A stretch of 64,000 nt of DNA from Occultella glacieicola. Its GTDB lineage: Bacteria; Actinomycetota; Actinomycetes; Actinomycetales; Beutenbergiaceae. The stretch spans positions 62,001-126,000 of the forward strand of contig NZ_SMNA01000005.1 in the NCBI RefSeq assembly GCF_004353825.1, written 5' to 3'. This document shows positions 6,458 through 64,000 of this stretch, piece by piece; within the stretch, counting starts at the first letter, position 1; every line of letters begins with the position of its first letter. The position numbers were made by a program, and so were the translations under genes. The notes beneath the pieces are model-generated. The model did no database searches. It was not told the origin of the DNA and worked only from the letters and a program-made list of their open reading frames with translations.

Positions 6458-7726
6458 TCAGGATGCGGCGGCGTCCTCGCGGGCCGCACGCTCCTTCGCC
6501 CGAGCGGTGGCACGCTGCCGGGCCTTGGCCGCGTCGGCGTCGATCGACGCGGCCTTGTCGTCGTCCCGGGTGAGGCTGTCCTGGCTCTCCGGGTCGAACA
6601 CGTGCACCGACGCTGGATCGAACCAGAGCGTGGCGGCGTCACCGTCCCGGATGCTGCTCAGGGAGTCCAGGGCCACCACCAGCTGGGTCCGCATGCCCTC
6701 CCCGTCGAGCTCCCGGTCGAGCTCCTCGAGCTGCTTCTGGACTGCCGGGTCGGTCTCGAACGGCACGTAGGCATACAGTTCGGACCCGAGCCACTCGGTG
6801 ACGTCCACGTCGGCGTCGAACGTGACGCCGTCGCCGCGTTTGTCCGAGCTGACCACGTCGGCGTCCTCGAAGGCGTCCGGGCGGATCCCGACGATAACCA
6901 GGTCACGGCTGCCGATCGCGGTCCGCAGGCGTTCGTCCATCGGGATCCGCGCGAACGGCACCACCAGGTGGTCGCCGTCCACGCGGCCGGGCAGGAAGTT
7001 CATCGGTGGCGAGCCGATGAACCCGGCCACGAACAGATTGACCGGCTGGTCGTAGAGTGCCCGCGGGCTGGCCACCTGCTGCAGGACTCCGCGGCGGAGC
7101 ACGGCCACCCGGTCGCCGAGCGTCATCGCCTCGGTCTGGTCGTGCGTGACGTACACCGTGGTGGTCGCGAGCCGGCGCTGTAGCCGGGCGATCTCGGTGC
7201 GCATCTGACCGCGGAGCTTGGCGTCCAGGTTGGACAGCGGCTCGTCGAACAGGAACGCCTGGGCCTGGCGCACGATCGCGCGGCCCATCGCGACCCGCTG
7301 GCGCTGTCCACCGGAGAGGTTGGCGGGCTTGCGGTCCAGGTGCTCGTCGAGCTCGAGCAGCGACGAGGCGTTGCGGACCCGGGAGTCGATCTCGGAGTCC
7401 GAGTACTGACCCTTCGTCAGCCGCAGCGGGAACGCGATGTTCTCGTACACGGTCAGGTGCGGGTAGAGCGCGTAGTTCTGGAACACCATCGCGAGGTCCC
7501 GGTTCCGCGGGGCGAGGTCGTTGACCCGCTTCCCGTCGATCTCGAGGTCACCGGACGTGATGTCCTCGAGGCCCACGATCATCCGCAACAGCGTCGACTT
7601 CCCGCAGCCGGAGGGACCGACCAGGATCACGAACTCGCCGTCGGCGATGTCCAGGCTCACGTCGTTCACGGCCGGGAACCCGTCGCCGTACTGCTTCACG
7701 ATGTGGTTCAAGGTGATCGACGCCAT
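6458..7726 (-). CDS. sugC: Sugar ABC transporter ATP-binding subunit (SugC/MalK type)
   Basis: [50 protein letters not shown]. Confidence 0.88.
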
Positions 7727-7762
7727 CTCCGATGTCTCCTTCTAGTCGTTCGCGTCAGGGCC

Positions 7763-8608
7763 TCAGCCCTTGACGGCTCCCTGGGTCAGTCCGGCCACGA
7801 TCTGTCGTTGGAAGAGCAGCACCAGCACGATCACCGGGACGGTCACCACCACGGCTGCCGCCGAGATGGCGCCGGTCGGATCCTCGAAGTAGGACTCGCC
7901 GGTGAAGAACGCGAGCGCCGCGGGTACCGGCCGCGCGGCACTGGTGGAGGTCAGCGAGATCCCGTACACGAAGTCGTTCCAGGCGATGAAGAACGCGATC
8001 AGCGCGGTCGTGAACACACCGGGCGCGGCCAGCGGGACGATCGCCTTGCGGAAGGCCTGCATCGGCGTGGCCCCGTCCACCTGGGCGGCCTGCTCCAGCT
8101 CCCACGGGATCTGCCGGAAGAACGCCGCGAGGGTCCACATCGAGATCGGCAGGGTCAGCGACAGGTACGGGATGATCAGCCCGGCCCAGGTGTCGTAGAG
8201 CCCGATCGAGCGCCAGATGTTGAACAGCGGCGTCACGATCGAGATCACCGGGAAGATCGAGACCCCCAGCGCCGTGGTCAGCACCAGCCGCTTGCCGGGG
8301 AAGTCCAGCCGGGCGATCGCGTACGCCGCCACGGTGGCCAGCACCACGGCGATGAGGGTCGCGATCAGCGAGATGCCGATGGAGTTGCGCAGCGCGGGCA
8401 GGAACAGGTCCCGGGCCGAACCGTCCGGGGCGAGGATCTGCGCGTAGTTCTCCCACGTCCACGTGGTCGGCAGGAACCTGCCGGAACTGAGGTCGCCCGG
8501 GAGCTTGAAGGAGGTGGCCAGGATGGACAGGACCGGGAACAGCGCGTAGACGAGCACGAGCACCGTGATGAGCACCCACCACAGTTTCTGGCGTCCGGTG
8601 AGAGCCAT
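7763..8608 (-). CDS. sugB: Sugar ABC transporter permease (SugB-like)
   Basis: EAA loop ELEQAAQVDGAT; C-terminal QRQIVAGLTQGAVKG; start MALTGRQK. Confidence 0.85.
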   Translation of the reverse strand: MALTGRQKLWWVLITVLVLVYALFPVLSILATSFKLPGDLSSGRFLPTTWTWENYAQILAPDGSARDLFLPALRNSIGISLIATLIAVVLATVAAYAIARLDFPGKRLVLTTALGVSIFPVISIVTPLFNIWRSIGLYDTWAGLIIPYLSLTLPISMWTLAAFFRQIPWELEQAAQVDGATPMQAFRKAIVPLAAPGVFTTALIAFFIAWNDFVYGISLTSTSAARPVPAALAFFTGESYFEDPTGAISAAAVVVTVPVIVLVLLFQRQIVAGLTQGAVKG

Positions 8609-9588
8609 CAGTTGCCTCCTCGCGCGCTGGAGAGGTCGACCTTGAAGAGTTTGATCGCCACGAAGCAGATCAGCACCACGGACAGGAACAGCAGCACCGA
8701 GACGGCGGACCCGAGCCCGATCTCCAGGCGCCCGATCGAGGTCCGGTAGGCGAGCAGCGAGAGCACCGTGGTGCCGTTCGCACCGTTCGTCATCACGAAG
8801 ACGTTGTCGAAGATGCGGAACGCGTCGAGCGCCCGGAACAGCACGGCCACCATGATCGCGGCCTTCATGTTCGGCACGATCACGCGCTTGAACACCTGCC
8901 AGGAGGTCGCGCCGTCGACCTTGGCGGCCTCCTCGAGCTCGCCCGGGACCTGGGCGAGGCCGGCCAGCAACAGCAGCGAGATGAAGGGCGTCGTCTTCCA
9001 GATCTCGGAGGCCATGATCACGAACAGGCTGGTGCCCTGGCTCGCGAACCAGTTCAGGTCCTCGCTGACCCCCGGGACCCAGTCGAACCAGGAGTTCACG
9101 TACCCGGAACTGATGTCGAACGCGTAGAACCAGGCGAACGCGGAGACCACCGTGATGATCCCGTAGGGCACCAGGATCGCGGTCCGCAGGATCCCGCGCA
9201 GGCTCTTGATGGCCCGGTGCATGACCAGGGCGAGGGCGAACCCGATCACGAGTTCGACCGCCACGGTCACCACCATGATGAACAACGTCACCCACATCGC
9301 GGACCAGAACACCGGGTCGCTGAGCACCACCGCGTAGTTGCCGAACCCGACGAACTCGTTGGCGTCCGGCGCGGTCAGCCGGATCCGGGAGAGGGAGTCG
9401 ATGAACGCCTGCACGATGGGGTAGAGCGTGACGGCGAGCATGACGATGAAGGCCGGCGCGGCGAGCAGGATTCCGAGCCGGGCCTCGGATCGGGCCCGGT
9501 CGCTCGCGCGTGGCCTTGCGCTCCTGCCGCGCCGGTCGGGCTTGTTGACGTCGGTCGCGGGCGCGGGCCCGCTCGCACTGTGACTCAC
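8608..9588 (-). CDS. sugA: Sugar ABC transporter permease (SugA-like)
   Basis: WKTTPFISLLLLAGL, EEAAKVDGAT, FRALDAFRIFD; GTG start overlapping the SBP stop. Confidence 0.85.
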   Translation of the reverse strand: MSHSASGPAPATDVNKPDRRGRSARPRASDRARSEARLGILLAAPAFIVMLAVTLYPIVQAFIDSLSRIRLTAPDANEFVGFGNYAVVLSDPVFWSAMWVTLFIMVVTVAVELVIGFALALVMHRAIKSLRGILRTAILVPYGIITVVSAFAWFYAFDISSGYVNSWFDWVPGVSEDLNWFASQGTSLFVIMASEIWKTTPFISLLLLAGLAQVPGELEEAAKVDGATSWQVFKRVIVPNMKAAIMVAVLFRALDAFRIFDNVFVMTNGANGTTVLSLLAYRTSIGRLEIGLGSAVSVLLFLSVVLICFVAIKLFKVDLSSARGGN

Positions 9589-10871
9589 AGCAGACGCTCC
9601 CCTCTCAGGACGGCGGTGATGAGTTCGGTGGCCGCCTCCGGAGTCGTGTCCGGGTCGACGCTGGAGACCGGGTGCCAGGTCTCCTGCAGACCGGTGCTGA
9701 TCTCGTTGTAGAGGGGGGTCTGCGGCCGGGGCACCGCCTGTTCGAGCGAGTCCCGGATGAGTTCGTACATCGGGAAGGTCGCCTGGACCTCGGGGTCCTC
9801 GTAGGCCTCGGTGTTCGAGGCGGGGTTCCCGTCGTTGACCATGTAGAACGCCTGGTGCTCGGGGGTGACGATGCACTGGGCGGCCTCGAACGCCAGGTCG
9901 GTGTGGTCGCTGAACGCACCGATGCCGAGGTTGATCCCGCCGACCGGCGGCGCGGAGTCCGTGCCCTCGGTGACCGCCGGGTAGAGCGCCCAGCCGAAGT
10001 CGTCGAGCACCGACTGGTCGATGAGGCCGTCCTCGACCGCCTGTTGCGTGGACGTCCACACGAACGGCCAGTTCACCATGAACGAGGCGTCGTCACCCTG
10101 GAACAGTTGCAGCGATGCGGACTCGTCGGCGGTGGGCAGGCCGGGACCGCCGAGACCCTCGCGACCGATCTGCCCCATGATCCGGGCCGCCTCACGTCCG
10201 GCGTCGGTCTCCAGGCCCAGCTCGGTGTCCTCCGCGCTCGCGCCCGGGTTCTCGATGATCTGCCCGCCGGCCGAGGTGATCAGGGCGTTGATCCAGACCG
10301 TGAGGGACTCCCCCTTGATCCCCTGCACCGCGAGATAGCGGTCCTGATCGGTAGCCACCTCGATCAACTGGTCCCAGGTGACCGGCTGCGACATGTCCAG
10401 CCCGGCCTCCTCGACCACCGACTCGCGGTACCAGAGCAGCTGGGTGTTGGCCCAGAACGGGATCGCGACGAGTTCGTCGTTCCAGGTCGCCGAGTCCAGC
10501 GAGCCCTGCACCACGTTCTGCGAGACGTCCTCGGCCACGTCCTCGGGGACCGGCGCGAGGAAGCCTGGCTCGGACAGCTCCGGGATGAACGGCGGATCCA
10601 GGCTCATCAGGTCGATCGACCTGTCCTCCGCGGCGAGGCGGCGCGCGAGCTGTTCCCGCTGGGCCGCGGCGTCACGCGGCAGCAGCACCGTCTCGATGGT
10701 GTAGGCGCCGTCCGCGGCCTCCGTGCATTCCGCCGCGATCTGCGCCTGGCCGCCGTTGTCGGAGTTGATGTACCAGTTCAGGGTGGGCGGCCCTTCGTCG
10801 GGCGCACACCCGGCGACCGTCACCGCGAGCGCGGCTCCGAGGGTCGCCGCGACCATTCGGTTTCGACGCAC
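9585..10871 (-). CDS. lpqY: Sugar-binding lipoprotein (LpqY-like, trehalose-type by similarity)
   Basis: Lipobox VAGC; QREQLARRLAAED, NTQLLWYR, FMVNWPFV, GGINLG; GGAGG RBS before GTG. Substrate is inferred, not shown. Confidence 0.7.
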   Translation of the reverse strand: MRRNRMVAATLGAALAVTVAGCAPDEGPPTLNWYINSDNGGQAQIAAECTEAADGAYTIETVLLPRDAAAQREQLARRLAAEDRSIDLMSLDPPFIPELSEPGFLAPVPEDVAEDVSQNVVQGSLDSATWNDELVAIPFWANTQLLWYRESVVEEAGLDMSQPVTWDQLIEVATDQDRYLAVQGIKGESLTVWINALITSAGGQIIENPGASAEDTELGLETDAGREAARIMGQIGREGLGGPGLPTADESASLQLFQGDDASFMVNWPFVWTSTQQAVEDGLIDQSVLDDFGWALYPAVTEGTDSAPPVGGINLGIGAFSDHTDLAFEAAQCIVTPEHQAFYMVNDGNPASNTEAYEDPEVQATFPMYELIRDSLEQAVPRPQTPLYNEISTGLQETWHPVSSVDPDTTPEAATELITAVLRGERLL

Positions 10872-11046
10872 CGGTCCTCCCAGAATCGCGTCTTCGCTGG
10901 ATCTTGGCGCCCAGCCAACACCCGATCGGTGCGGCGCGCACGTCGAGGGCCCGCACGCCCACCGACCGGCGGGCCGGACGCCACGGCCCGGGAACGCACG
11001 AGCCAGGCCGGCCCCTGGGGGCTCCGACCTGGCTCGCGGCGGGCGT

Positions 11047-12588
11047 TCAGTCCCGGAACGTCTCGATCTGCGCGCCGAGCTCGATCAGGCGCTCCTGCAG
11101 CTGCTCGTAGCCACGAGCGATGATGTCGACGCCGCGCAGGACGGAGGTCCCCTTCGCGGCGAGCATCGCGAGCAGGATCACGACGGCGGGGCGTAGCGCG
11201 GGCGGGCAGCTCACCTCCGCGCCGGACCAGTGGGTGGGGCCGGTGACGTCGAGACGGTGCGGGTCGAGCAGGCGCACGTCGGCGCCGAGCCGGTTCAGGT
11301 CGGTGAGGTGGATGGCCCGGCTGTCGTAGACCCAGTCGTGGATGAGGGTGTGACCGGATGCCGACGCTGCGATGACGGCGAAGAACGGCAGGTTGTCGAT
11401 GTTCAGGCCCGGGAACGGCATCGGGTGGATCTTGTCGATCGGGGCGTGCAGGTCGCTCGGGTGGACGGTGACGTCGACGAGGCGGGTCCGGCCGTTCGCG
11501 GCGGTGTACTCCTCCGAGACGGTGTAGCGCAGTCCCATCTCGGCGAGCGTCGCGAGCTCGATCTCCATGAACTCGATCGGCACCCGGGAGACCGTGATCT
11601 CCGAGTGCGTGACGATGCCGGCGGTGAGCAGGCTCATCGCCTCGACCGGGTCCTCCGACGGTGCGTAGTCCACGTCGACGTCGATCTCGGATCGGCCGTG
11701 CACCCGAAGGGTGGTGGTGCCGATACCGTCCACCCGGACCCCGAGGAGCTCGAGGTAGAAGCACAGGTCCTGGACCATGTAGTTCGGGCTGGCGTTGCGG
11801 ATGGTGGTGACGCCCGGGTGCCGCGCGGCGGCCATGATCGCGTTCTCGGTGACCGTGTCACCGCGCTCGGTGAGCACCACCTTGATGTCCTCGGGACGGT
11901 TCGGCTCCACGGTCGCGTGGTAGGCGCCCGAGGTGGCCACGACGTCCAGTCCGAACGGCCGCAGGGCGATCATGTGCGGCTCCACGGTGCGGGTGCCGAG
12001 GTCGCAGCCGCCCGCGTAGGGCAGGTCGAAGGTGGCCTCGGAGTTCAGCAGCGGACCGAGGAACATGATGATGCTGCGCGTGCGCCGGGCTGCGTCCGAG
12101 TCGATGCCGCTCAGGTCCAGTCGGGCCGGCGGCACGATGTCGAGGTCCCTACCGTCGGCGGACCAGGTGGCCTGGACCCCGATCGACCGGAGCACGTCGA
12201 CGATCCGGTCCACCTCGACGATCCGGGCGACGCCGCGCAGCCGGGTCCTTCCCCGGTTCAGGAGCGAGGCGCAGAGCAGGGCGACCGCGCCGTTCTTGGA
12301 CGACTTGACGGTGATCGTGCCCGAGAGCTGCTGGCCGCCGGTCACCCGCAGGTGCGAGGCCCGGGGAGCCCCGATCGAGAGCAGGTCCGCCTCCAGGGCC
12401 CGGTTGATCCGGGCGAGGAGCTCGACGGAGAGGTTCTGACTGCCCTGCTCGATGCGGGCGATGGCGCTCTGCGAGGTGTTCAGGCGCTCGGCGAGCTGGC
12501 TCTGGGTCAAGCCCTTGTTCTGCCGAGCCCCGCGGATCAGGGTGCCGATCTCGGCGACGGAGGTATCGGTCTCTTCAATCACGGTCAT
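11047..12588 (-). CDS. murA: XRE-family HTH fused to UDP-N-acetylglucosamine 1-carboxyvinyltransferase (MurA)
   Basis: N-terminal IRGARQNKGLTQSQLAERLNTSQSAIARIEQG (XRE HTH); then SKNGAVA, GGCDLGTR, PFPGLNID, IARGY MurA motifs. Confidence 0.88.
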   Translation of the reverse strand: MTVIEETDTSVAEIGTLIRGARQNKGLTQSQLAERLNTSQSAIARIEQGSQNLSVELLARINRALEADLLSIGAPRASHLRVTGGQQLSGTITVKSSKNGAVALLCASLLNRGRTRLRGVARIVEVDRIVDVLRSIGVQATWSADGRDLDIVPPARLDLSGIDSDAARRTRSIIMFLGPLLNSEATFDLPYAGGCDLGTRTVEPHMIALRPFGLDVVATSGAYHATVEPNRPEDIKVVLTERGDTVTENAIMAAARHPGVTTIRNASPNYMVQDLCFYLELLGVRVDGIGTTTLRVHGRSEIDVDVDYAPSEDPVEAMSLLTAGIVTHSEITVSRVPIEFMEIELATLAEMGLRYTVSEEYTAANGRTRLVDVTVHPSDLHAPIDKIHPMPFPGLNIDNLPFFAVIAASASGHTLIHDWVYDSRAIHLTDLNRLGADVRLLDPHRLDVTGPTHWSGAEVSCPPALRPAVVILLAMLAAKGTSVLRGVDIIARGYEQLQERLIELGAQIETFRD

Positions 12589-12592
12589 GCCG

Positions 12593-12622
12593 TCACGATA
12601 TCTCACATCTGAGATATCGCGA
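12593..12622. promoter_or_regulatory. Palindromic operator overlapping the -10 of the HTH-murA gene
   Basis: CGATATCTCA-catc-TGAGATATCG (12596-12619), perfect 10-bp arms; minus-strand TATCGT (12595-12600) 6 nt before ATG. Confidence 0.75.
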
Positions 12623-12705
12623 GGTTTCGTGAGATGGAACACAGCGCGTGTCGCGCGATCTTGCGCCGACCTCATGCGCAGTGCGCATGAGGTCGGCGAC
12701 GGAGC

Positions 12706-14133
12706 TCAGGCTTCGATGCCCTCCAGCAGCTCGGTGACGAGCGCCGCGACCGGGGATCGCTCGGACCGCGTCAGCGTCACGTGCGCGAACAGCGGGTGTC
12801 CCTTGAGCGCCTCGATCACGGCAGCGACGCCGTCGTGACGTCCCACCCTCAGGTTGTCCCGCTGGGCCACGTCGTGGGTGAGGACCACCCGCGAACTCTG
12901 CCCGATCCGGGACAGCACCGTGAGCAGGACGTTCCGCTCGAGCGACTGTGCCTCGTCCACGATCACGAACGCGTCGTGCAGCGACCGGCCGCGGATGTGG
13001 GTGAGCGGGAGCACCTCGAGCATGCCGCGGTCCATGACCTCCTCGACGACCTCCGAGGAGACCACCGCGCCGAGGGTGTCGAAGACGGCCTGGGCCCAGG
13101 GGTTCATCTTCTCGGCCTCGCTGCCGGGCAGGTAGCCGAGCTCCTGGCCGCCGACGGCGTACAGCGGCCGGAACACCATCACCTTCCGGTGCTCACGCCG
13201 TTCCAGGACGGCCTCCAGCCCGGCGCAGAGGGCCAGCGCGGACTTCCCCGTCCCCGCCCGGCCCCCGAGGGAGACGATGCCGATCTCCGGATCGAGGAGC
13301 AGGTCGATCGCGATCCGCTGCTCGGCACTGCGGCCGTGCATCCCGAAGACGTCCCGGTCGCCCCGGACCAACGAGATCTGCTTGTCCGGCGTCACCCGCC
13401 CGAGTGCCGATCCCCGCGGCGAGTGCAGCACCAGGCCGGTGTGGCAGGGCAGGTCCCGGACGCCGTCGCCGACCGCCAGCTCCGCGATGGTCAGGCGCTC
13501 CTCACCGAACAGGGTCGCCATCTCGGTCTCGGTGACCTGGGCCTCGGACATCCCCCGCCAGCCGGAGTCGACGGCGAGCTGGGCCCGGTACTCCTCGGCC
13601 CTGATGCCGACGGCGGACGCCTTGACCCGCATCGGCAGGTCCTTGGAGACGACCCGGACGTCAAGCCCCTCGGAGCGCAGGTTCGCCGCGACGGACAGGA
13701 TCCGCGTGTCGTTGTCGCCCAGGCGCAGGCCCGAGGGCAGGATCGACGGGTCCGAGTGGTTCAGCTCGACCCGGACCGTGCCGCCGGCCTCCCCCACCTC
13801 GATCGGTTCGTCGAGCTTGCCGTGCCGGACCCGCAGGTCGTCGAGGATGCGCAGGGCGCTGCGGGCGAAGTAGCCGAGCTCGGCGTGGTGGCGCTTGGCC
13901 TCCAGTTCGGTGACGACCACGATCGGCAGCACCACGTCGTGCTCGGCGAAGCGGTAGATCGCGCGGGGGTCGGAGAGCAACACCGAGGTGTCGAGGACGT
14001 ACGTGACGCGTGCGCCGTCGGCTGCCTGCGGGTCGGGCACCGGCAAGGGACCGTGGAGTCCCTCACCGCCCATCGATCTACCCGTTGCTGTGACATCGAT
14101 CGGATCGTCGAACGCGAGGGACTCACGGGTCAC
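12706..14133 (-). CDS. phoH2: PhoH2 (PIN domain + PhoH ATPase)
   Basis: PIN motif [19 protein letters not shown]; Walker [34 protein letters not shown] before GTG 14133. Confidence 0.93.
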
Positions 14134-14252
14134 TGGTAGCTCCTCCAGGTGAACCTGCTCCGCTGCGCACTGCCGCGCTGCGGGTGCGGGGTGAGGGCGG
14201 TCGGCCCGACGAGGGGCCGGCGGCCCCTCTCCCACCTGAGCGTGTGCTCCAT
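14130..14252 (-). CDS. Candidate 40-aa leader peptide/uORF upstream of phoH2
   Basis: GGGAGG RBS, ATG 14252, [40 protein letters not shown]; its TGA overlaps the phoH2 GTG (GTGA). Confidence 0.45.
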
Positions 14253-14509
14253 GGGCTGGCCTCCCGGTGGGTGGCCGGAGTGCCACCCAGTGATCACCAC
14301 GCTACGACCGTGCCGACGTCCGGAGTGGGATCGACGCGGCGTGGCGCGCGGATCGCGAAGAGTTCACCCGCCGGACACATTCCCCGCCCGCCCAAGAGGG
14401 CCTGGTGCCGTCAGGACAGCCCGCGCAAGGTTCTGCATCAACGGGTCCGGGTGCGGACGAGCACCGGATGCACGGCACCGGCCACGGAGCCCTGGCGGGG
14501 GCCGCCCGG

Positions 14510-15271
14510 TCAGCGCCCGAGGCGGCGCTCACGTTCGCCGTAGGAGCGCAGCGCCCGCAGGAAGTCCACCCGGCGGAAGTCCGGCCAGTAGGCCTCGCAG
14601 AAGTAGAACTCGCTGTGGGCACTCTGCCAGAGCAGGAAGCCGCCGAGCCGCTGCTCACCGGAGGTGCGGATGACCAGGTCCGGGTCCGGCTGGCCCTTCG
14701 TGTACAGGTGCTCGGCGATCTTCTCGACGGTGACCACGTCGGTGAGGTCCTCGAGCGGGCGGCCCTGCTCGGTGTACTCCTTGATCAGCGAGCGCACCGC
14801 GTTCGCGATCTCGTGCCGGCCGCCGTACCCGACGGCGATGTTGACGTGCACACCGTCGACGTCCTCGGTGAGGGCCTCGGCGGCCCGGAGCCGGTCGGCG
14901 ATCTCGGCCGGCAGCAGGTCCAGTTCGCCGACCATCCGCAGGCGCCAGCGCCTGGAGGTGGCGAGCTTCGCGACGGTGGCCGCAATGATCTCGAGGAGGT
15001 CGGTGATCTCGGCGGGATCGCGCCGGAGGTTGTCGGTGGAGAGCATCCACAACGTGACGACCCCCACCCCCACCTCCTCGCACCAGGTGAGCAGGTCGGT
15101 GATCCGGTCCGCCCCGGCCTGGTGCCCCTGGGCCGTCTCCAGTCCGACCGAGCGGGCCCAGCGGCGGTTCCCGTCCAGCATCACGCCGATGTGATGTGGA
15201 ACCGGTCGGCCGTGCATCTGGTTCGCGAGCCTGCGCTCGTAGATGCCGTACAGGAAGTTCGGTGGCCGCAT
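14510..15271 (-). CDS. cis-Prenyltransferase (UppS family; short-chain Z-isoprenyl diphosphate synthase-like)
   Basis: PHHIGVMLDGNRRWA, LSTDNL, VGYGGR, PDLVIRTSGEQRLGGFLLWQ. Confidence 0.92.
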   Translation of the reverse strand: MRPPNFLYGIYERRLANQMHGRPVPHHIGVMLDGNRRWARSVGLETAQGHQAGADRITDLLTWCEEVGVGVVTLWMLSTDNLRRDPAEITDLLEIIAATVAKLATSRRWRLRMVGELDLLPAEIADRLRAAEALTEDVDGVHVNIAVGYGGRHEIANAVRSLIKEYTEQGRPLEDLTDVVTVEKIAEHLYTKGQPDPDLVIRTSGEQRLGGFLLWQSAHSEFYFCEAYWPDFRRVDFLRALRSYGERERRLGR

Positions 15272-15372
15272 CTCGGTTTCCGCTCCTCCTCGCATGGGTG
15301 TACATCCGGCGGTGATCGCTCGCACCATCGGTGGGAACGGACACACGCTACAACTCTCAACCGATGCATGGA

Positions 15373-17239: not shown

Positions 17240-18052
17240 TCAGCCCGCGGGCACCACCCGGTAGCGGCGGTGCCGCAGGCTCGGAACCGTCTCGCGGACC
17301 CGGTTCACGACGGCGGGGTCCAGGTCCGCGCGCAAGGTCGCCGTGGTCTCGTCGCCGGTCTCGGCGATCGGTACGCCGAGCGGGTCGATGATCGCGCTGT
17401 GCCCGCTGCGGCCGTGTCCGCTCTGGCTCGCCAGGAGCAGATAACTCGTGTTCTCCAGCGCACGGGCCCGGGCCAGGGTCTGCAGCTGGGCCACCTTGCC
17501 CGGGCCCTCGGCCCAGGCCGCGATCACCACGAGGACGTGCGCGCCCGCATCGGCAAGGACCCGGAAGGCCTCCGGGAACCGGAGGTCGTAACACGTCGCG
17601 ACCCCGACCCGGAGCCCGCCGAGGTCGAGGACGAGCGTGTTCGCCGGGTCGGGATCGCCGGGCATGAGCACGTCGGACTCCCGAACCCCGAAGGCGTCGA
17701 ACAGGTGCACCTTGACGTACCGGCCGCGCACGGTGCCATCCGGACCGATCGCGACGGCGACGTTGCGCGCCCGGCCCTCCTCCGCCGTCGGGCCGGTCTC
17801 GGTGGTGCCGACCACGACGTGCACCGCCGCCGCCCGCGCGGCCTCGCACACGGCGCGCATGAAGGAGCCGTCCGCCGGCTGGGCCAGGTCCGGGCCGAGC
17901 CGGGGCGCCCAGCCGGACGTGTACTCGGGCAGGACCACGAGCTCCGCGCCGCGGCCGGCCGCGTCCGCGATCGCCGCGGTCGCCAGCCGCGCGTTGTGGT
18001 CGGCGTCCGCGGTCGCGCTCAGTTGCGCGACGGCGACCGGGAGGGTGGTCAT
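17240..18052 (-). CDS. Carbon-nitrogen hydrolase (nitrilase/Nit family amidase)
   Basis: Catalytic triad LPE, YVKVHLFDA, TCYDLRFPE; ARALEN. Confidence 0.9.
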   Translation of the reverse strand: MTTLPVAVAQLSATADADHNARLATAAIADAAGRGAELVVLPEYTSGWAPRLGPDLAQPADGSFMRAVCEAARAAAVHVVVGTTETGPTAEEGRARNVAVAIGPDGTVRGRYVKVHLFDAFGVRESDVLMPGDPDPANTLVLDLGGLRVGVATCYDLRFPEAFRVLADAGAHVLVVIAAWAEGPGKVAQLQTLARARALENTSYLLLASQSGHGRSGHSAIIDPLGVPIAETGDETTATLRADLDPAVVNRVRETVPSLRHRRYRVVPAG

Positions 18053-18345
18053 GGCCGGGTGCCGCCGGGCGGGTCGGTGGGGCTCACCGGGTCGCCGGAG
18101 CCGGTCGGGCCGGCAGGGTGGGCAGTGTCGGCAGTGTCGGCAGTGTCGGCACTGTCGGCAGTGTCCTCGGCGTCCGACCGGGCCTGCGCGGCGGCGTTCG
18201 TGCGCGCCCGGCGCATGTGCTTGCCGAGGCCGCGGGCCAGGAAGAACACGACCAGGGCCAGGAAGAAGAACACCGCGAACCCGCCGATGCCGGGGGTGAC
18301 CACGCTCGGGTCGGGCACGTCCTCGGCCAGCAGCGGCGCGATCAC
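18049..18345 (-). CDS. Small membrane protein
   Basis: [21 protein letters not shown] single TM; overlaps both neighbours by 4 nt. Confidence 0.75.
18121..18165. repeat. 9-bp tandem repeat x5 (in frame, ADT repeats)
   Basis: GGCAGTGTC x3, GGCACTGTC, GGCAGTGTC. Confidence 0.9.
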
Positions 18346-19220
18346 ACCTGCTCCCGGATGCCAGCGAACAGGTCGGTCTCGGGAACGCTCGTCACGACCC
18401 GGGACCGGACCAGCTCGAACTCCTCGAACGGCCAGGACTCCCGCTCGATCTCACGCGGCACGGCGAAGAAGAACCCGTCCGGATCGATCTGGGTCGCGTG
18501 CGCGAGCAGGGCCCGGTCGCGCTGGTCGAAGTAGTCGGCGCACTCGATCCTGGTGGTCACCTGGTCGGCGCGGTCGTCGCGGTCCTCCCAGCGCTCCAGC
18601 CACTCCGCGAACGGGGAGTCCTTACCGGCAGCCAGGACGGCCTCGTGGATGGCGACCACGCGGGACCGGGAGAAGCCGTGGTCGTAGTACAGCTTCGCGA
18701 TCTCCCAGGCCGGACCGGCGCTCGGGAACGCGTCCGGGTCCGCGGCCGCGTCGAACGCCGCGACCGAGACCCGGTGGGTCATGATGTGGTCGGGATGCGG
18801 GTAGCCGCCGTTCTCGTTGTACGTGGTCATCACGTGCGGCCGGAACTCCCGGACCACGCGCACCAGCGCCTCGGTGCTCACCTCGAGCGGTTCCAGCCCG
18901 AAGCACCCCGGCGGCAGCGGCGGCAGCGGGTCCCCCTCCGGCAGCCCGGAGTCGACGAAGCCGAGCCAGCGCTGCGAGATCCCGAGTTCGGCCGCCGCTG
19001 CGGCCATCTCCCGGCGTCGATAGCCCGGCATGTCCCGGAGCACCTCGGGGTCGTTCTCGAGACGCGGGTTCAGGATGTCGCCGCGCTCGCCGCCGGTGCA
19101 CGTCACGACGAGGACCTCGACGCCCTCGGCGGCGTACCGCGCCATGGTCGCCGCGCCCTTGCTCGATTCGTCGTCGGGGTGGGCGTGCACGGCCATGAGC
19201 CGCAGGTTCTGCGCAGCCAA
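18342..19220 (-). CDS. mca: Mycothiol S-conjugate amidase
   Basis: [45 protein letters not shown] start with GGAGG RBS. Confidence 0.95.
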
Positions 19221-61537: not shown

Positions 61538-64000
61538 CTAGGACGAGCTCGCCACCTTCGCGGCAGCGGCCACAGTCGCTCCCGGTGCCAGCACCGCGTC
61601 GATCAACTCGCTCACCCAGGTGATCAGCTGCTCGTCCCGCAACGGGGTGCCGCCGACGCGGGACGTCGTCGGGGCCGGCACCAGCGCAGTGCGCACGGCC
61701 GGCTTGAGGATGGTCCCGGGGTAGAGCCGCTTGAGCCGCATCCCGGCGGACTCGGCCAGGTCTACCGGTGCGAACCGGATGTACTTGCCCTGCGAGGTCA
61801 TGTCCGCGAGACCCGCGGCGCGAGCCTTGACCCGCAGTGAGGCGACGGCGAACAACCGCTCGACCGGCTCCGGCACCGGGCCGTACCGGTCCACGAGCTC
61901 CTCCCGGACGGCGTCGATCGCCGCGGCGTCAGCGGCCTTCGCGATCTTCGTGTAGGCCTCCAGCCGGAGCCGTTCGTGCGCGATGTACTCATGCGGCAGG
62001 TGCGCGTCGATCGGCAGTTCCACCTTCAGCTCGGGCAGCTCCTCGGGCACCTCGCCGCGGAAGTTCGCCACCGCCTCGGAGACCATCCGCACGTACAGGT
62101 CGAAGCCGACGCCCGCGATGTGCCCGGACTGCTCCCCGCCGAGCAGGTTCCCGGCGCCGCGGATCTCCAGGTCCTTCATGGCGATGGCGGTGCCGGAGCC
62201 GAGGTCGGTGTGCGCGGCGATGGTCTGCAGCCGGTCGTGCGCGGTCTCGGTGAGCGGGCGTTCCGGGGGGTAGAGGAAGTACGCGTAGGCGCGCTCGCGA
62301 CCCCGGCCGACGCGGCCGCGGAGTTGGTGCAGCTGGGACAGGCCGAGCACGTCCGCGCGCTCGACGATCAGGGTGTTCGCGTTCGAGATGTCCAGGCCGG
62401 TCTCCACGATGGTGGTGCAGACGAGGACGTCGAACCTCTTCTCCCAGAAGTCCATGATGACCCGCTCGAGCTGGTGCTCGCCCATCTTTCCGTGGGCGAC
62501 GGCGATCCTCGCGTCTGGCACCAGTTCGGCGAGTCGCGAGGCGGTGCGGTCGATCGACTCGACCCGGTTGTGCACGTAGAAGACCTGCCCCTCGCGCAGC
62601 AGTTCCCGTCGGACCGCGGCGGCGATCTGCTTCTCCGCGTAGGCGCCCACGAACGTCAGCACCGGGTGCCGCTCCTCCGGCGGGGTGGCCAGGGTGGACA
62701 TCTCCCGGATCCCGGTGACCGCCATCTCCAACGTCCGCGGGATCGGCGTGGCGCTCATGGCGAGCACGTCCACATTCGTGCGGAGCTGCTTGAGGGTCTC
62801 CTTGTGCTCGACCCCGAACCGCTGCTCCTCGTCCACCACGACCAGGCCCAGGTCCTTGAACCGGACCTCGCCGGTGAGCAGCCGGTGGGTGCCGATGACC
62901 ACGTCCACGCTGCCGTCGGCGATGCCCTCCTTCACGGCGCGGGCCTCGGCGTCGCTCTGGAACCGGGACAGGCCCTTGACCACCACGGGGAACCCGGCGT
63001 ACCGCTCGGAGAACGTGTCGAAGTGCTGCTGCACGAGCAGCGTGGTGGGCACCAGTACGGCCACCTGCTTGCCGTCCTGGACCGCCTTGAACGCGGCCCG
63101 GACGGCGATCTCGGTCTTGCCGTAGCCGACGTCCCCGCTGATCAGCCGGTCCATCGGGGTGGGCTTCTCCATGTCCGCCTTCACCTCGTCGATGGTGACC
63201 ACCTGGTCGGGGGTCTCGACGAACGCGAACGCATCCTCCAGCTCACGCTGCCACGGGGTGTCCGGGGCGAACGGGTGCCCCTTCGTGGCCATCCGGGCCG
63301 AGTACAGCCGGATCAGCTCGCCGGCGATCTCCTTGATCGCCTTGCGGGCCCGGCCCTTCGTCTTGGCCCAGTCCGAGCCACCCATCTTGTTCACCGACGG
63401 CGACTCGCCACCGGTGTACTTGGTCACCTGGTCGAGGGCGTCGCTCGGCACGTACAGCCGGTCGCCGGGCTGGCCGCGCTTCGACGGCGCGTACTCGATG
63501 ACCAGGTACTCGCGGGTGGCGGCGGAGCGCCCGGTGCCAATGGTCCGCTGGATCAGTTCCACGAACTTCCCGACGCCATGCTGCTCGTGCACCACGTAGT
63601 CGCCCGGGCGCAGCGCGAGCGGGTCGACGACGTTGCGCCGCTTCGACGGCATCCGGCGCATGTCCCGGGTGGAGGTGCCGGCCCGGCCGGTCAGGTCCGC
63701 CTCGGTGAACACAGCCAGTTTGAGCGGTTCCGAGACGAAGCCGCGGCCGAGGCTGGCGGTGGTGACGAGGACGACGCCGGTGGGCGGCAGGTCCGGGTCC
63801 TCACCCGGGCGGGCGTCGCCCTGGGCCGGTTCGACGGCGGAGACGAGCCGGGCGGGCACGTCACCGTCGAGGAGCTGCTCCACCATCCGGCGGGCCGGCC
63901 CCGGGCCTTCGGTCACGAGCACGAGGCGCCAGCCGGCGGCGGTGAGGTCACGCAGGTCCGCCACGGCCCGCGCAGTCTCGCCACGGTAGACGTCGACGTC
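61538..64000 (-). CDS. mfd: Transcription-repair coupling factor (5' part outside window)
   Basis: [59 protein letters not shown] domain. Confidence 0.98.

Follow-up and report, generated by a model that had tools for sequence, protein, structure and literature searches.

The 64,000-nucleotide stretch of the Occultella glacieicola genome analysed here (referred to as the window; positions 62,001 to 126,000 of contig NZ_SMNA01000005.1) carries on its minus strand a gene whose product joins a helix-turn-helix (HTH) domain of the XRE type to a MurA-like enolpyruvyl transferase. We refer to this product as HTH-MurA, or the fusion. Peptidoglycan synthesis is entered through MurA, its first committed enzyme, which fosfomycin targets. 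The features of the locus, among them a palindrome over the promoter of the fusion gene, are collected in Table 1.

A preliminary description, made from the letters of the window, had claimed an in-frame fusion of an XRE HTH with a complete enolpyruvyl-transferase domain, and the domain searches on the 513-residue open reading frame (ORF) agree with it. The Pfam model HTH_3 matched residues 18-66 (E 4.9e-12, 46.1 bits, cut-off 23), HTH_31 matched residues 13-68 (45.6 bits, cut-off 27), and EPSP_synthase matched residues 82-501 (E 1.2e-40) over profile positions 1-417 of 417, which corresponds to the full two-domain fold. The NCBIfam MurA subfamily model NF006873 was passed only barely (298.4 bits against a cut-off of 297). 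The closest solved structure was the MurA of PDB entry 5ujs (E 4.9e-51, residues 77-509 aligned), and the nearest named relative of the protein was from Occultella (97% identity). An alternative, longer ORF begins with an ATG at 12675. Since that codon would fall within the hairpin that follows the stop codon of the upstream PIN-PhoH gene, we took the ATG at 12588 as the start, and the starts of the orthologues, 6-8 nucleotides (nt) past their -10 hexamers, agree with this choice.

Table 1. Features of the HTH-MurA locus, in positions of the window
Feature	Position	Strand	Remarks
HTH-MurA coding sequence	11047..12588	-	513 aa plus stop; ATG 12588-12586
XRE-type HTH domain, residues 13-68	12385..12552	-	Pfam HTH_3, HTH_31; recognition helix at about residues 40-47
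Flexible linker, residues 69-78	12355..12384	-	pLDDT <50 at residues 71-76 (AlphaFold2 model)
MurA (enolpyruvyl transferase) body, residues 79-511	11056..12354	-	NF006873, TIGR01072, PDB 5ujs
Cys195 codon, counterpart of the MurA catalytic or fosfomycin-target Cys	12004..12006	-	GGC aligned with GGC of 5ujs; invariant in the family
Ala464 codon, at the position of the canonical MurA DLRA Asp	11197..11199	-	family motif CPPALRPA invariant
Operator palindrome	12593..12622	.	core ATCTCA-N4-TGAGAT at 12600-12615
-10 hexamer TATCGT (TAnnnT)	12595..12600	-	first base common to the right operator arm
Extra ATCTCA half-site	12630..12635	-	not conserved
Perfect 17-bp inverted repeat directly past the PIN-PhoH stop codon	12664..12698	-	terminator-like, no U tract
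Hairpin immediately 3' of the HTH-MurA stop codon	10992..11048	-	RNA fold

A palindrome over the promoter of the fusion gene

The palindrome has two arms of 13 nt (12593-12605 and 12610-12622), which are 92% complementary and separated by a 4-nt gap; the 10-nt arms, CGATATCTCA and TGAGATATCG, are perfect. The dyad scan thus reproduced the 13-bp arms with one mismatch that had been proposed for this site, and the coordinates of the -10 hexamer, proposed to overlap the dyad and to lie 6 nt ahead of the ATG, agreed as well. When the A of the ATG is counted as +1, the core lies at -27 to -12. TATCGT (12600-12595) begins with its final T, and 6 nt separate this hexamer from the ATG at 12588-12586. 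The operator spans roughly -30 to -5 of the promoter, in which no -35 element could be recognised. The rarity claimed for the dyad also held at the scale of the genome: the perfect core occurs once in 5,339,675 bases with a G+C content of 71.4%, as compared with 0.015 occurrences expected from base composition.

A family matrix built from 59 distinct orthologue sites was used to scan the same genome. The fusion's own site scored 39.0 bits, and the runner-up, which adjoins an unrelated XRE gene, scored 18.1 bits. Neither the exact nor the matrix scans of this genome revealed a second target of the fusion, and the canonical murA gene was without a site as well. Judged from these scans, the regulon appears to be confined to the fusion gene itself. 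No close paralogue of the fused HTH was found in this genome; the best match (G000:C18:406217-406375) is 47% identical over 53 residues. Palindromes of the ATATCA and ATGTCA type lie beside this paralogue, near C18:406394 and C18:407467, and it probably represents an independent small XRE regulator that has its own operator. In relatives, the extra exact ATCTCRNNNNYGAGAT sites of Kribbella and Nocardioides were considered as signs of a wider regulon and rejected, as they lie in long, G+C-rich open frames and resemble chance matches. One Streptomyces locus (L156; G034:C8:367900-371100) carries, around locus position 1595, a second perfect ATCTCA-N4-TGAGATA in an intergenic region upstream of a gene for a cbiM-type cobalt transporter; such a site was not seen elsewhere.

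Conservation of the palindrome upstream of orthologues had been set beforehand as a test of its function. Our search for relatives confirmed 595 among 598 matched stretches, and the best 80 loci, with 69-82% identity, were kept; together with the window locus they form the 81 loci to which the counts below refer. The taxa represented include Serinibacter, Oerskovia, Cellulomonas, Geodermatophilus, Streptomyces, Nocardioides, Kribbella and Pseudonocardiaceae. When the 300 nt preceding the HTH were searched, the best core match was 12/12 in 58 loci, 11/12 in 14 and 10/12 in 7, so that the core was kept at 10/12 or better in 79 of the 81; one of the remaining loci had 9/12 and the other (L013) 6/12, the latter with the same arms and a spacer shorter by 1 nt. 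In all 79 operator loci a TAnnnT hexamer begins with the T that ends the right arm, and the first in-frame start follows the hexamer after 6 nt in 32 of them, 7 nt in 38, 8 nt in 5 and at other distances in 4. The combination of TAnnnT with a start 6-8 nt further on, found in 75/79 loci, is the geometry of a leaderless promoter. The additional half-site noted at 12630 is present in the window, at 12630-12635, but it does not belong to the conserved arrangement, as extra exact half-sites occurred within 150 nt upstream in just 8/79 loci and at varying positions.

A leaderless transcript is also suggested by a published transcription start site (TSS) of Streptomyces coelicolor. In the TSS data that Jeong et al. 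published in 2016 (PMC4895711, supplement files 4 and 5), TSS-3016 at 6574715 is the first base of SCO5998 (murA2; 6573186-6574715, minus strand), a gene flagged there as leaderless. Another source (PMC12161575) gives the aconitase gene SCO5999 as its divergent neighbour. Since the length of 1530 nt and this neighbour match the Streptomyces loci, which are 69-71% identical to the fusion, we regard SCO5998 as a probable orthologue. Taken together with the 6-nt spacing between hexamer and ATG in O. glacieicola, the published TSS suggests that the mRNA of the fusion gene is leaderless. The literature contains further data on the Streptomyces gene: murA2 was named a second UDP-GlcNAc transferase, with a DmdR1 site predicted between murA2 and acn (PMC12161575), a BldM-WhiI footprint was reported on its upstream region (PMC4125116), and a SigB-dependent promoter upstream of it (PMC8346170). 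Thus the Streptomyces MurA2 proteins (SCO5998 and sven5810 of S. venezuelae) resemble the fusion in identity, length and leaderless transcript, but in the parts of these papers that were available murA2 figures only as a target gene of BldM-WhiI, SigB and DmdR1, with neither an HTH nor a self-operator mentioned.

The association of the palindrome with the fusion was also followed in an even sample of the class (121 genomes of 88 genera), in which 14 genomes of 9 genera carry the fusion. In 12 of these 14, a ATCTCANNNNTGAGATA site with at most one mismatch preceded the first aligned fusion residue by about 50 nt or less, and no such site was found in the other two (G009 and G026). One-mismatch sites occurred in 36/107 fusion-less genomes too, mostly small ones of low G+C content; only exact sites and their position carry weight. 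The tallies of this site search, and those of the 301-genome pattern count described below, include genomes flagged as unpublished (G268, G029, G020), on which none of the specific claims made here depends.

On the protein side, T38, S39, Q40, S41, A42, R45 and E47, around or within the predicted recognition helix, were invariant in 38 aligned family members. Positions A1, T4, C5, A6, G12, A13 and T16 of the operator and the A that follows it were invariant in the family too. The proposal that the protein binds its own operator is supported, indirectly but consistently, by the conservation in 79/81 loci, the fixed register of TAnnnT, the TSS on the start codon of the S. coelicolor orthologue and the invariant recognition helix, and we infer that the fusion protein would do so through its HTH.

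The palindrome might instead be the site of another regulator, with the fused HTH binding elsewhere or nowhere. In a fusion-less genome (L157; G008:C42:35500-38700), the near-identical palindrome ATCTCAACGTTGAGATA and a second copy, AACGTTGAGATA, lie between divergent genes for a MarR-type regulator and an EamA transporter, which indicates that unrelated regulators use near-identical palindromes; the MarR-linked element TATCTYGATRTCGAGATA, discussed below, has ATCTC and GAGAT cores too. Nevertheless, the site tracks the fusion across orders, both among the 81 loci and in the class sample, and it is absent from the rest of the O. glacieicola genome, canonical murA included. Moreover, XRE regulators commonly have sites on their own promoters (PMC12565409). 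We therefore consider a foreign regulator at this site very unlikely.

The MurA body: probable catalysis and predicted dimerisation

The alignment to 5ujs agrees with the MurA motifs that the preliminary description had recognised, GGC among them, and with its reading of ALRP in place of DLRA. The motifs SKN, RTRS, GGC..G.R, NID, SRA and ARGYE are kept, and K98, N99, R171, C195, R200, D398, R424, R466 and R492 of the fusion align with MurA motifs and are invariant in the family; we take them to correspond to K22, N23, R91, C115, R120, D305, R331, R371 and R397 of E. coli MurA. At the DLRA position, presumably D369 of E. coli MurA, the Asp is replaced with Ala464 inside the invariant motif CPPALRPA. 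As compared with canonical MurA (TIGR01072; PDB 5ujs and 1uae), the fusion thus has a common fold over the whole body and the same Lys-Asn, Arg, Cys, Asp and Arg motifs, and differs in its N-terminal HTH, the Ala in place of the DLRA Asp, a score below the equivalog cut-off and a predicted dimer. It is about 31% identical to canonical MurA of actinobacteria.

Whether the MurA body works as an enzyme was approached through the MurA complement of genomes that carry the fusion. The O. glacieicola genome also holds a canonical murA, which scored 434.9 bits and likewise has the Cys, so that the check for a second murA that had been proposed gave a positive answer. In all five Nocardioidaceae genomes searched (four Nocardioides and one Aeromicrobium), the fusion was the sole MurA-family match, with 301-310 bits, and the next matches, with 19-49 bits, were AroA-like. 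Among 17 further fusion-bearing genomes, it was the sole MurA in four, all of them 100% complete, and the other 13 had a canonical MurA over the cut-off. Altogether, the fusion was the only MurA homologue in 9 of the 22 fusion-bearing genomes examined. Without a MurA no peptidoglycan can be made, and in these genomes the fusion is therefore most likely active; since the orthologues there are 70-72% identical to the protein of the window, it is probably a catalytically active MurA in O. glacieicola as well.

These data bear on the idea, contained in the preliminary description, that the MurA domain acts as a sensor. In its strict form, the body would have lost catalysis and would serve the HTH as a ligand module for UDP-N-acetylglucosamine (UDP-GlcNAc), phosphoenolpyruvate (PEP) or UDP-N-acetylmuramic acid (UDP-MurNAc), leaving catalysis to the canonical murA. 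The score of 285 bits with the murA equivalog model TIGR01072 (NCBIfam), below its cut-off of 392.7, would fit this, as would the invariant Ala at the DLRA Asp, the invariant motifs that the fusion family has of its own, and the canonical murA genes found here and in 13/17 other fusion-bearing genomes. In opposition to that, every other recognisable catalytic residue is invariant, and the genomes in which close orthologues are the sole MurA homologue point to a working enzyme rather than to a sensor. A body that only senses is accordingly improbable.

The AlphaFold2 model of the fusion had a mean predicted local distance difference test score (pLDDT) of 86.6, and its MurA body was confident, mostly above 85. 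The HTH was modelled with four helices (residues 11-24, 29-35, 40-47 and 55-65). The low pLDDT of linker residues 71-76 suggests that the HTH is tethered to the body and not docked on it. When two copies of residues 8-507 were submitted to a homodimer prediction, the score was 0.55, as compared with 0.00 for the best of three controls. Among the calibration proteins of this score, 20 of 30 solved as pairs attained the mark, as did 1 of 23 solved as single chains; these counts apply only roughly here, given that the alignment was our own. The dimer runs shared at least 93% of contacts, with a partner pLDDT of at least 84. The contacts predicted between the two chains are in the MurA body (residues 203-207, 238-242, 264-268, 291-293, 342-350, 384-394, 417-419 and 442-444), involve both lobes of the enzyme, and coincide in part with invariant segments of the family, LTERGDTVTEN and HPMPFPGLNIDN among them. 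The fusion is thus predicted to form a homodimer through its MurA body.

Look-alike palindromes and the neighbourhood

A palindrome similar to the operator lies on promoters of tricarboxylic acid (TCA) cycle genes. In O. glacieicola, one copy (TATCTCGATGTCGAGA; G000:C5:68641-68656, loci L129 and L110) is upstream of the aconitase gene (acn), and a second (G000:C16:528109-528123; L128:1610-1624) is directly upstream of the gene for trans-aconitate 2-methyltransferase (tam), which scored 310.8 bits with NF010703 against a cut-off of 320. The conserved form on acn and tam promoters is (G)TATCTYGATRTCGAGATA(C), and it was also seen at loci L093, L096, L097, L111-L115, L121 and L137-L155. The start of acn is covered by 28 Streptomyces loci; in every one of these, acn and the fusion gene are divergent and the element lies upstream of acn. 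Among five further genera tested, the element was upstream of acn in three, and in the other two (Geodermatophilus and a metagenome-assembled genome of Pseudonocardiaceae) no element was found within 450 nt of acn. Of 20 further sites, chosen from genomes with a single match, 8 preceded acn, 2 stood immediately before tam, and 2 preceded a gene for an amidase with tam next in line. In other Actinomycetes the element also precedes sdhC (2 loci), sucC, monomeric icd and mdh.

The resemblance raises the question of whether the fusion also controls acn, tam and other TCA-cycle genes through this related palindrome, ATCTYG-N4-CGAGAT. It has the same ATCTC...GAGAT cores and spacing as the operator, its copies precede acn and tam in O. 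glacieicola and acn in every Streptomyces locus with an acn start, and in one Streptomyces genome of 9.4 Mb ATCTCRNNNNYGAGAT occurs just twice, at the fusion gene and at acn. However, the element was found upstream of acn in eight genomes without the fusion (G111, G047, G064, G093, G016, G050, G065, G052); in two of these (G111 and G047) only canonical MurA was confirmed, and the closest HTH relatives were 30-35% identical. Moreover, among 47 flanking ORFs scanned, starts of MarR-family genes adjoined the element in 6 loci. The sites themselves are also distinct, as position 6 of the operator is A in 59/59 distinct sites and G in the acn/tam element, and of the 10 positions in the genome to which the own-site matrix gave more than 10 bits, none was at acn or tam. 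On these grounds the fusion was rejected as a regulator of acn and tam, a role that we now regard as hardly probable. A MarR-type regulator of TCA-cycle genes, itself autoregulated and unrelated to the fusion, probably uses the element as its operator.

Counts of similar patterns across the class were less informative. ATCTYGATRTCGAGA matched in 101/301 class genomes, as compared with 0 matches of the control, but the matches often lie in coding DNA rich in ATC, GAC and GAG, and the reversed-pattern control was not a fair one. With acn adjacent in only 3 of the 30 loci listed, the class-wide count was rejected as a signal. Genomes of family f34 (G098, G220, G268, G283, G252, G143 and others) have 4-11 copies of ATCTCGATRTCGAGA, whereas most genomes have 0-2; a regulon that has expanded, a repeat element or coding bias could account for this excess.

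Strong hairpins lie on both flanks of the HTH-MurA gene. The upstream one (12664-12698) has a predicted RNA folding energy of -37.9 kcal/mol (z -5.26), and the downstream one (10992-11048) of -47.1 kcal/mol (z -3.13). The gene therefore looks monocistronic. A simple scan of 12300-13000 for sigma-70 promoters and terminators called neither a promoter nor a consensus terminator, and an Rfam scan of 10700-13000 gave no match. The following neighbours are on the minus strand too. Upstream lie a PIN-PhoH (PhoH2-like) fusion (12706-14286), a gene of the undecaprenyl-diphosphate synthase family (14510-15346), a C-N hydrolase gene (17240-18052) and a gene for a PIG-L (MshB/Mca-like) deacetylase (18342-19220). 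Downstream, 6458-10871 is occupied by an operon for an ABC transporter of the sugar type (solute-binding protein, two permeases and a MalK-like ATPase). In the family-matrix scan of the genome, no operator-like site was seen at the cell-envelope genes near the fusion.

Proposed autoregulation and its significance

Known trigger enzymes are BirA of E. coli, which is both biotin protein ligase and repressor of the bio operon, NadR and PutA. Each combines a pathway enzyme and a DNA-binding repressor of that pathway's gene in one chain, acting as a dimer on a palindromic promoter operator, as proposed here for the fusion. The traits of this class that are found in HTH-MurA are an enzyme and a DNA-binding domain in one chain and an operator at a promoter that belongs to the enzyme's pathway. 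The differences are that the fusion has an XRE HTH in place of a winged helix or ribbon-helix-helix, and a different enzyme; the corepressor of BirA is known, and the apparent target of the fusion is its own gene only. By its HTH, the fusion matches C proteins (PDB 3clc) and ClgR (PDB 3f51) with E values of 7e-4 to 3e-4. As in XRE or Cro-CI autorepressors, e.g., the C proteins of restriction-modification systems, the operator is a palindrome on the own promoter with half-site centres about 10 bp apart. Those repressors are small and dimerise by the HTH, whereas the fusion is predicted to dimerise via its enzyme body of 430 residues.

We estimate at about three in four the probability that HTH-MurA is a trigger enzyme, that is, a probably active MurA paralogue with a tethered XRE HTH, which would bind as a dimer to its own operator and regulate its own gene negatively. 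Dimerisation via the MurA bodies would bring two HTH heads onto the two half-sites, one helical turn apart. The bound dimer would lie over about -30 to -5 and touch the -10 hexamer, and as the operator shares a base with this hexamer, it should block RNA polymerase. In this way the concentration of the enzyme would limit its own synthesis, which amounts to negative autoregulation of a leaderless gene.

The direction of the effect is likewise judged from the position of the operator, and we infer repression rather than activation. Some XRE-family proteins do activate transcription, and the promoter has no recognisable -35 element. An operator that extends into the -10 hexamer, to about -5, occupies a position that normally excludes RNA polymerase, however, and activation of its own promoter by the fusion is distinctly unlikely.

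A further, more tentative step is that the MurA body would be both an enzyme and an allosteric switch. As both lobes of the enzyme, which closes on its substrates, contribute to the predicted interface, control by ligands is plausible, and the substrates UDP-GlcNAc and PEP, UDP-MurNAc or a fosfomycin adduct may affect DNA binding. A dormant complex of UDP-MurNAc with PEP is known for other MurA enzymes. Closure induced by substrate, or locking by UDP-MurNAc and PEP, might thus re-set the distance or angle of the HTH heads; we consider such a switch possible, though doubtful at present.

Several observations weigh against the trigger-enzyme reading. Two of the 81 loci fall below 10/12 in the core, and two fusion genomes of the class sample, G009 and G026, lack a site at one mismatch or less. 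Both the HTH and the operator hardly vary among the loci sampled, so that no co-variation links the one to the other. The dimer prediction may have passed partly by likeness, as MurA has often been crystallised with several chains; it gives no information on the HTH heads and does not prove a dimer in solution. As regards catalysis, the sub-equivalog score with TIGR01072 and Ala464 in ALRP count against an active enzyme, and the canonical murA means that activity of the fusion is not required in O. glacieicola. Finally, judging from the available parts of the papers on Streptomyces, the BldM-WhiI and SigB inputs would make autoregulation there one layer among several.

The fusion and its operator are strongly conserved, and the locus is best read as encoding a self-repressing, probably active MurA of the trigger-enzyme kind. 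As far as we searched, the fusion is annotated in databases but not described: a literature search, in which most subscription journals were not covered, gave no account of its HTH, of DNA binding, of self-binding or of either palindrome. To our knowledge, known control of MurA is post-translational, by proteolysis and kinase signalling in Firmicutes and by product inhibition; PASTA-kinase control is the subject of one abstract. If the reading is true, a large metabolic enzyme would join the short list of trigger enzymes, and the invariant palindrome at the promoters of Streptomyces murA2, which the portions of the literature that were available do not mention, would be explained. The fusion is present in model streptomycetes (SCO5998), and no other MurA homologue was found in the Nocardioides and Aeromicrobium genomes searched. 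Should the switch also operate, the fusion would, in such Nocardioidaceae, be the principal point at which the pathway's entry is controlled. The autoregulation proposed for HTH-MurA would represent a new and very compact way to hold the flux into the cell wall steady.

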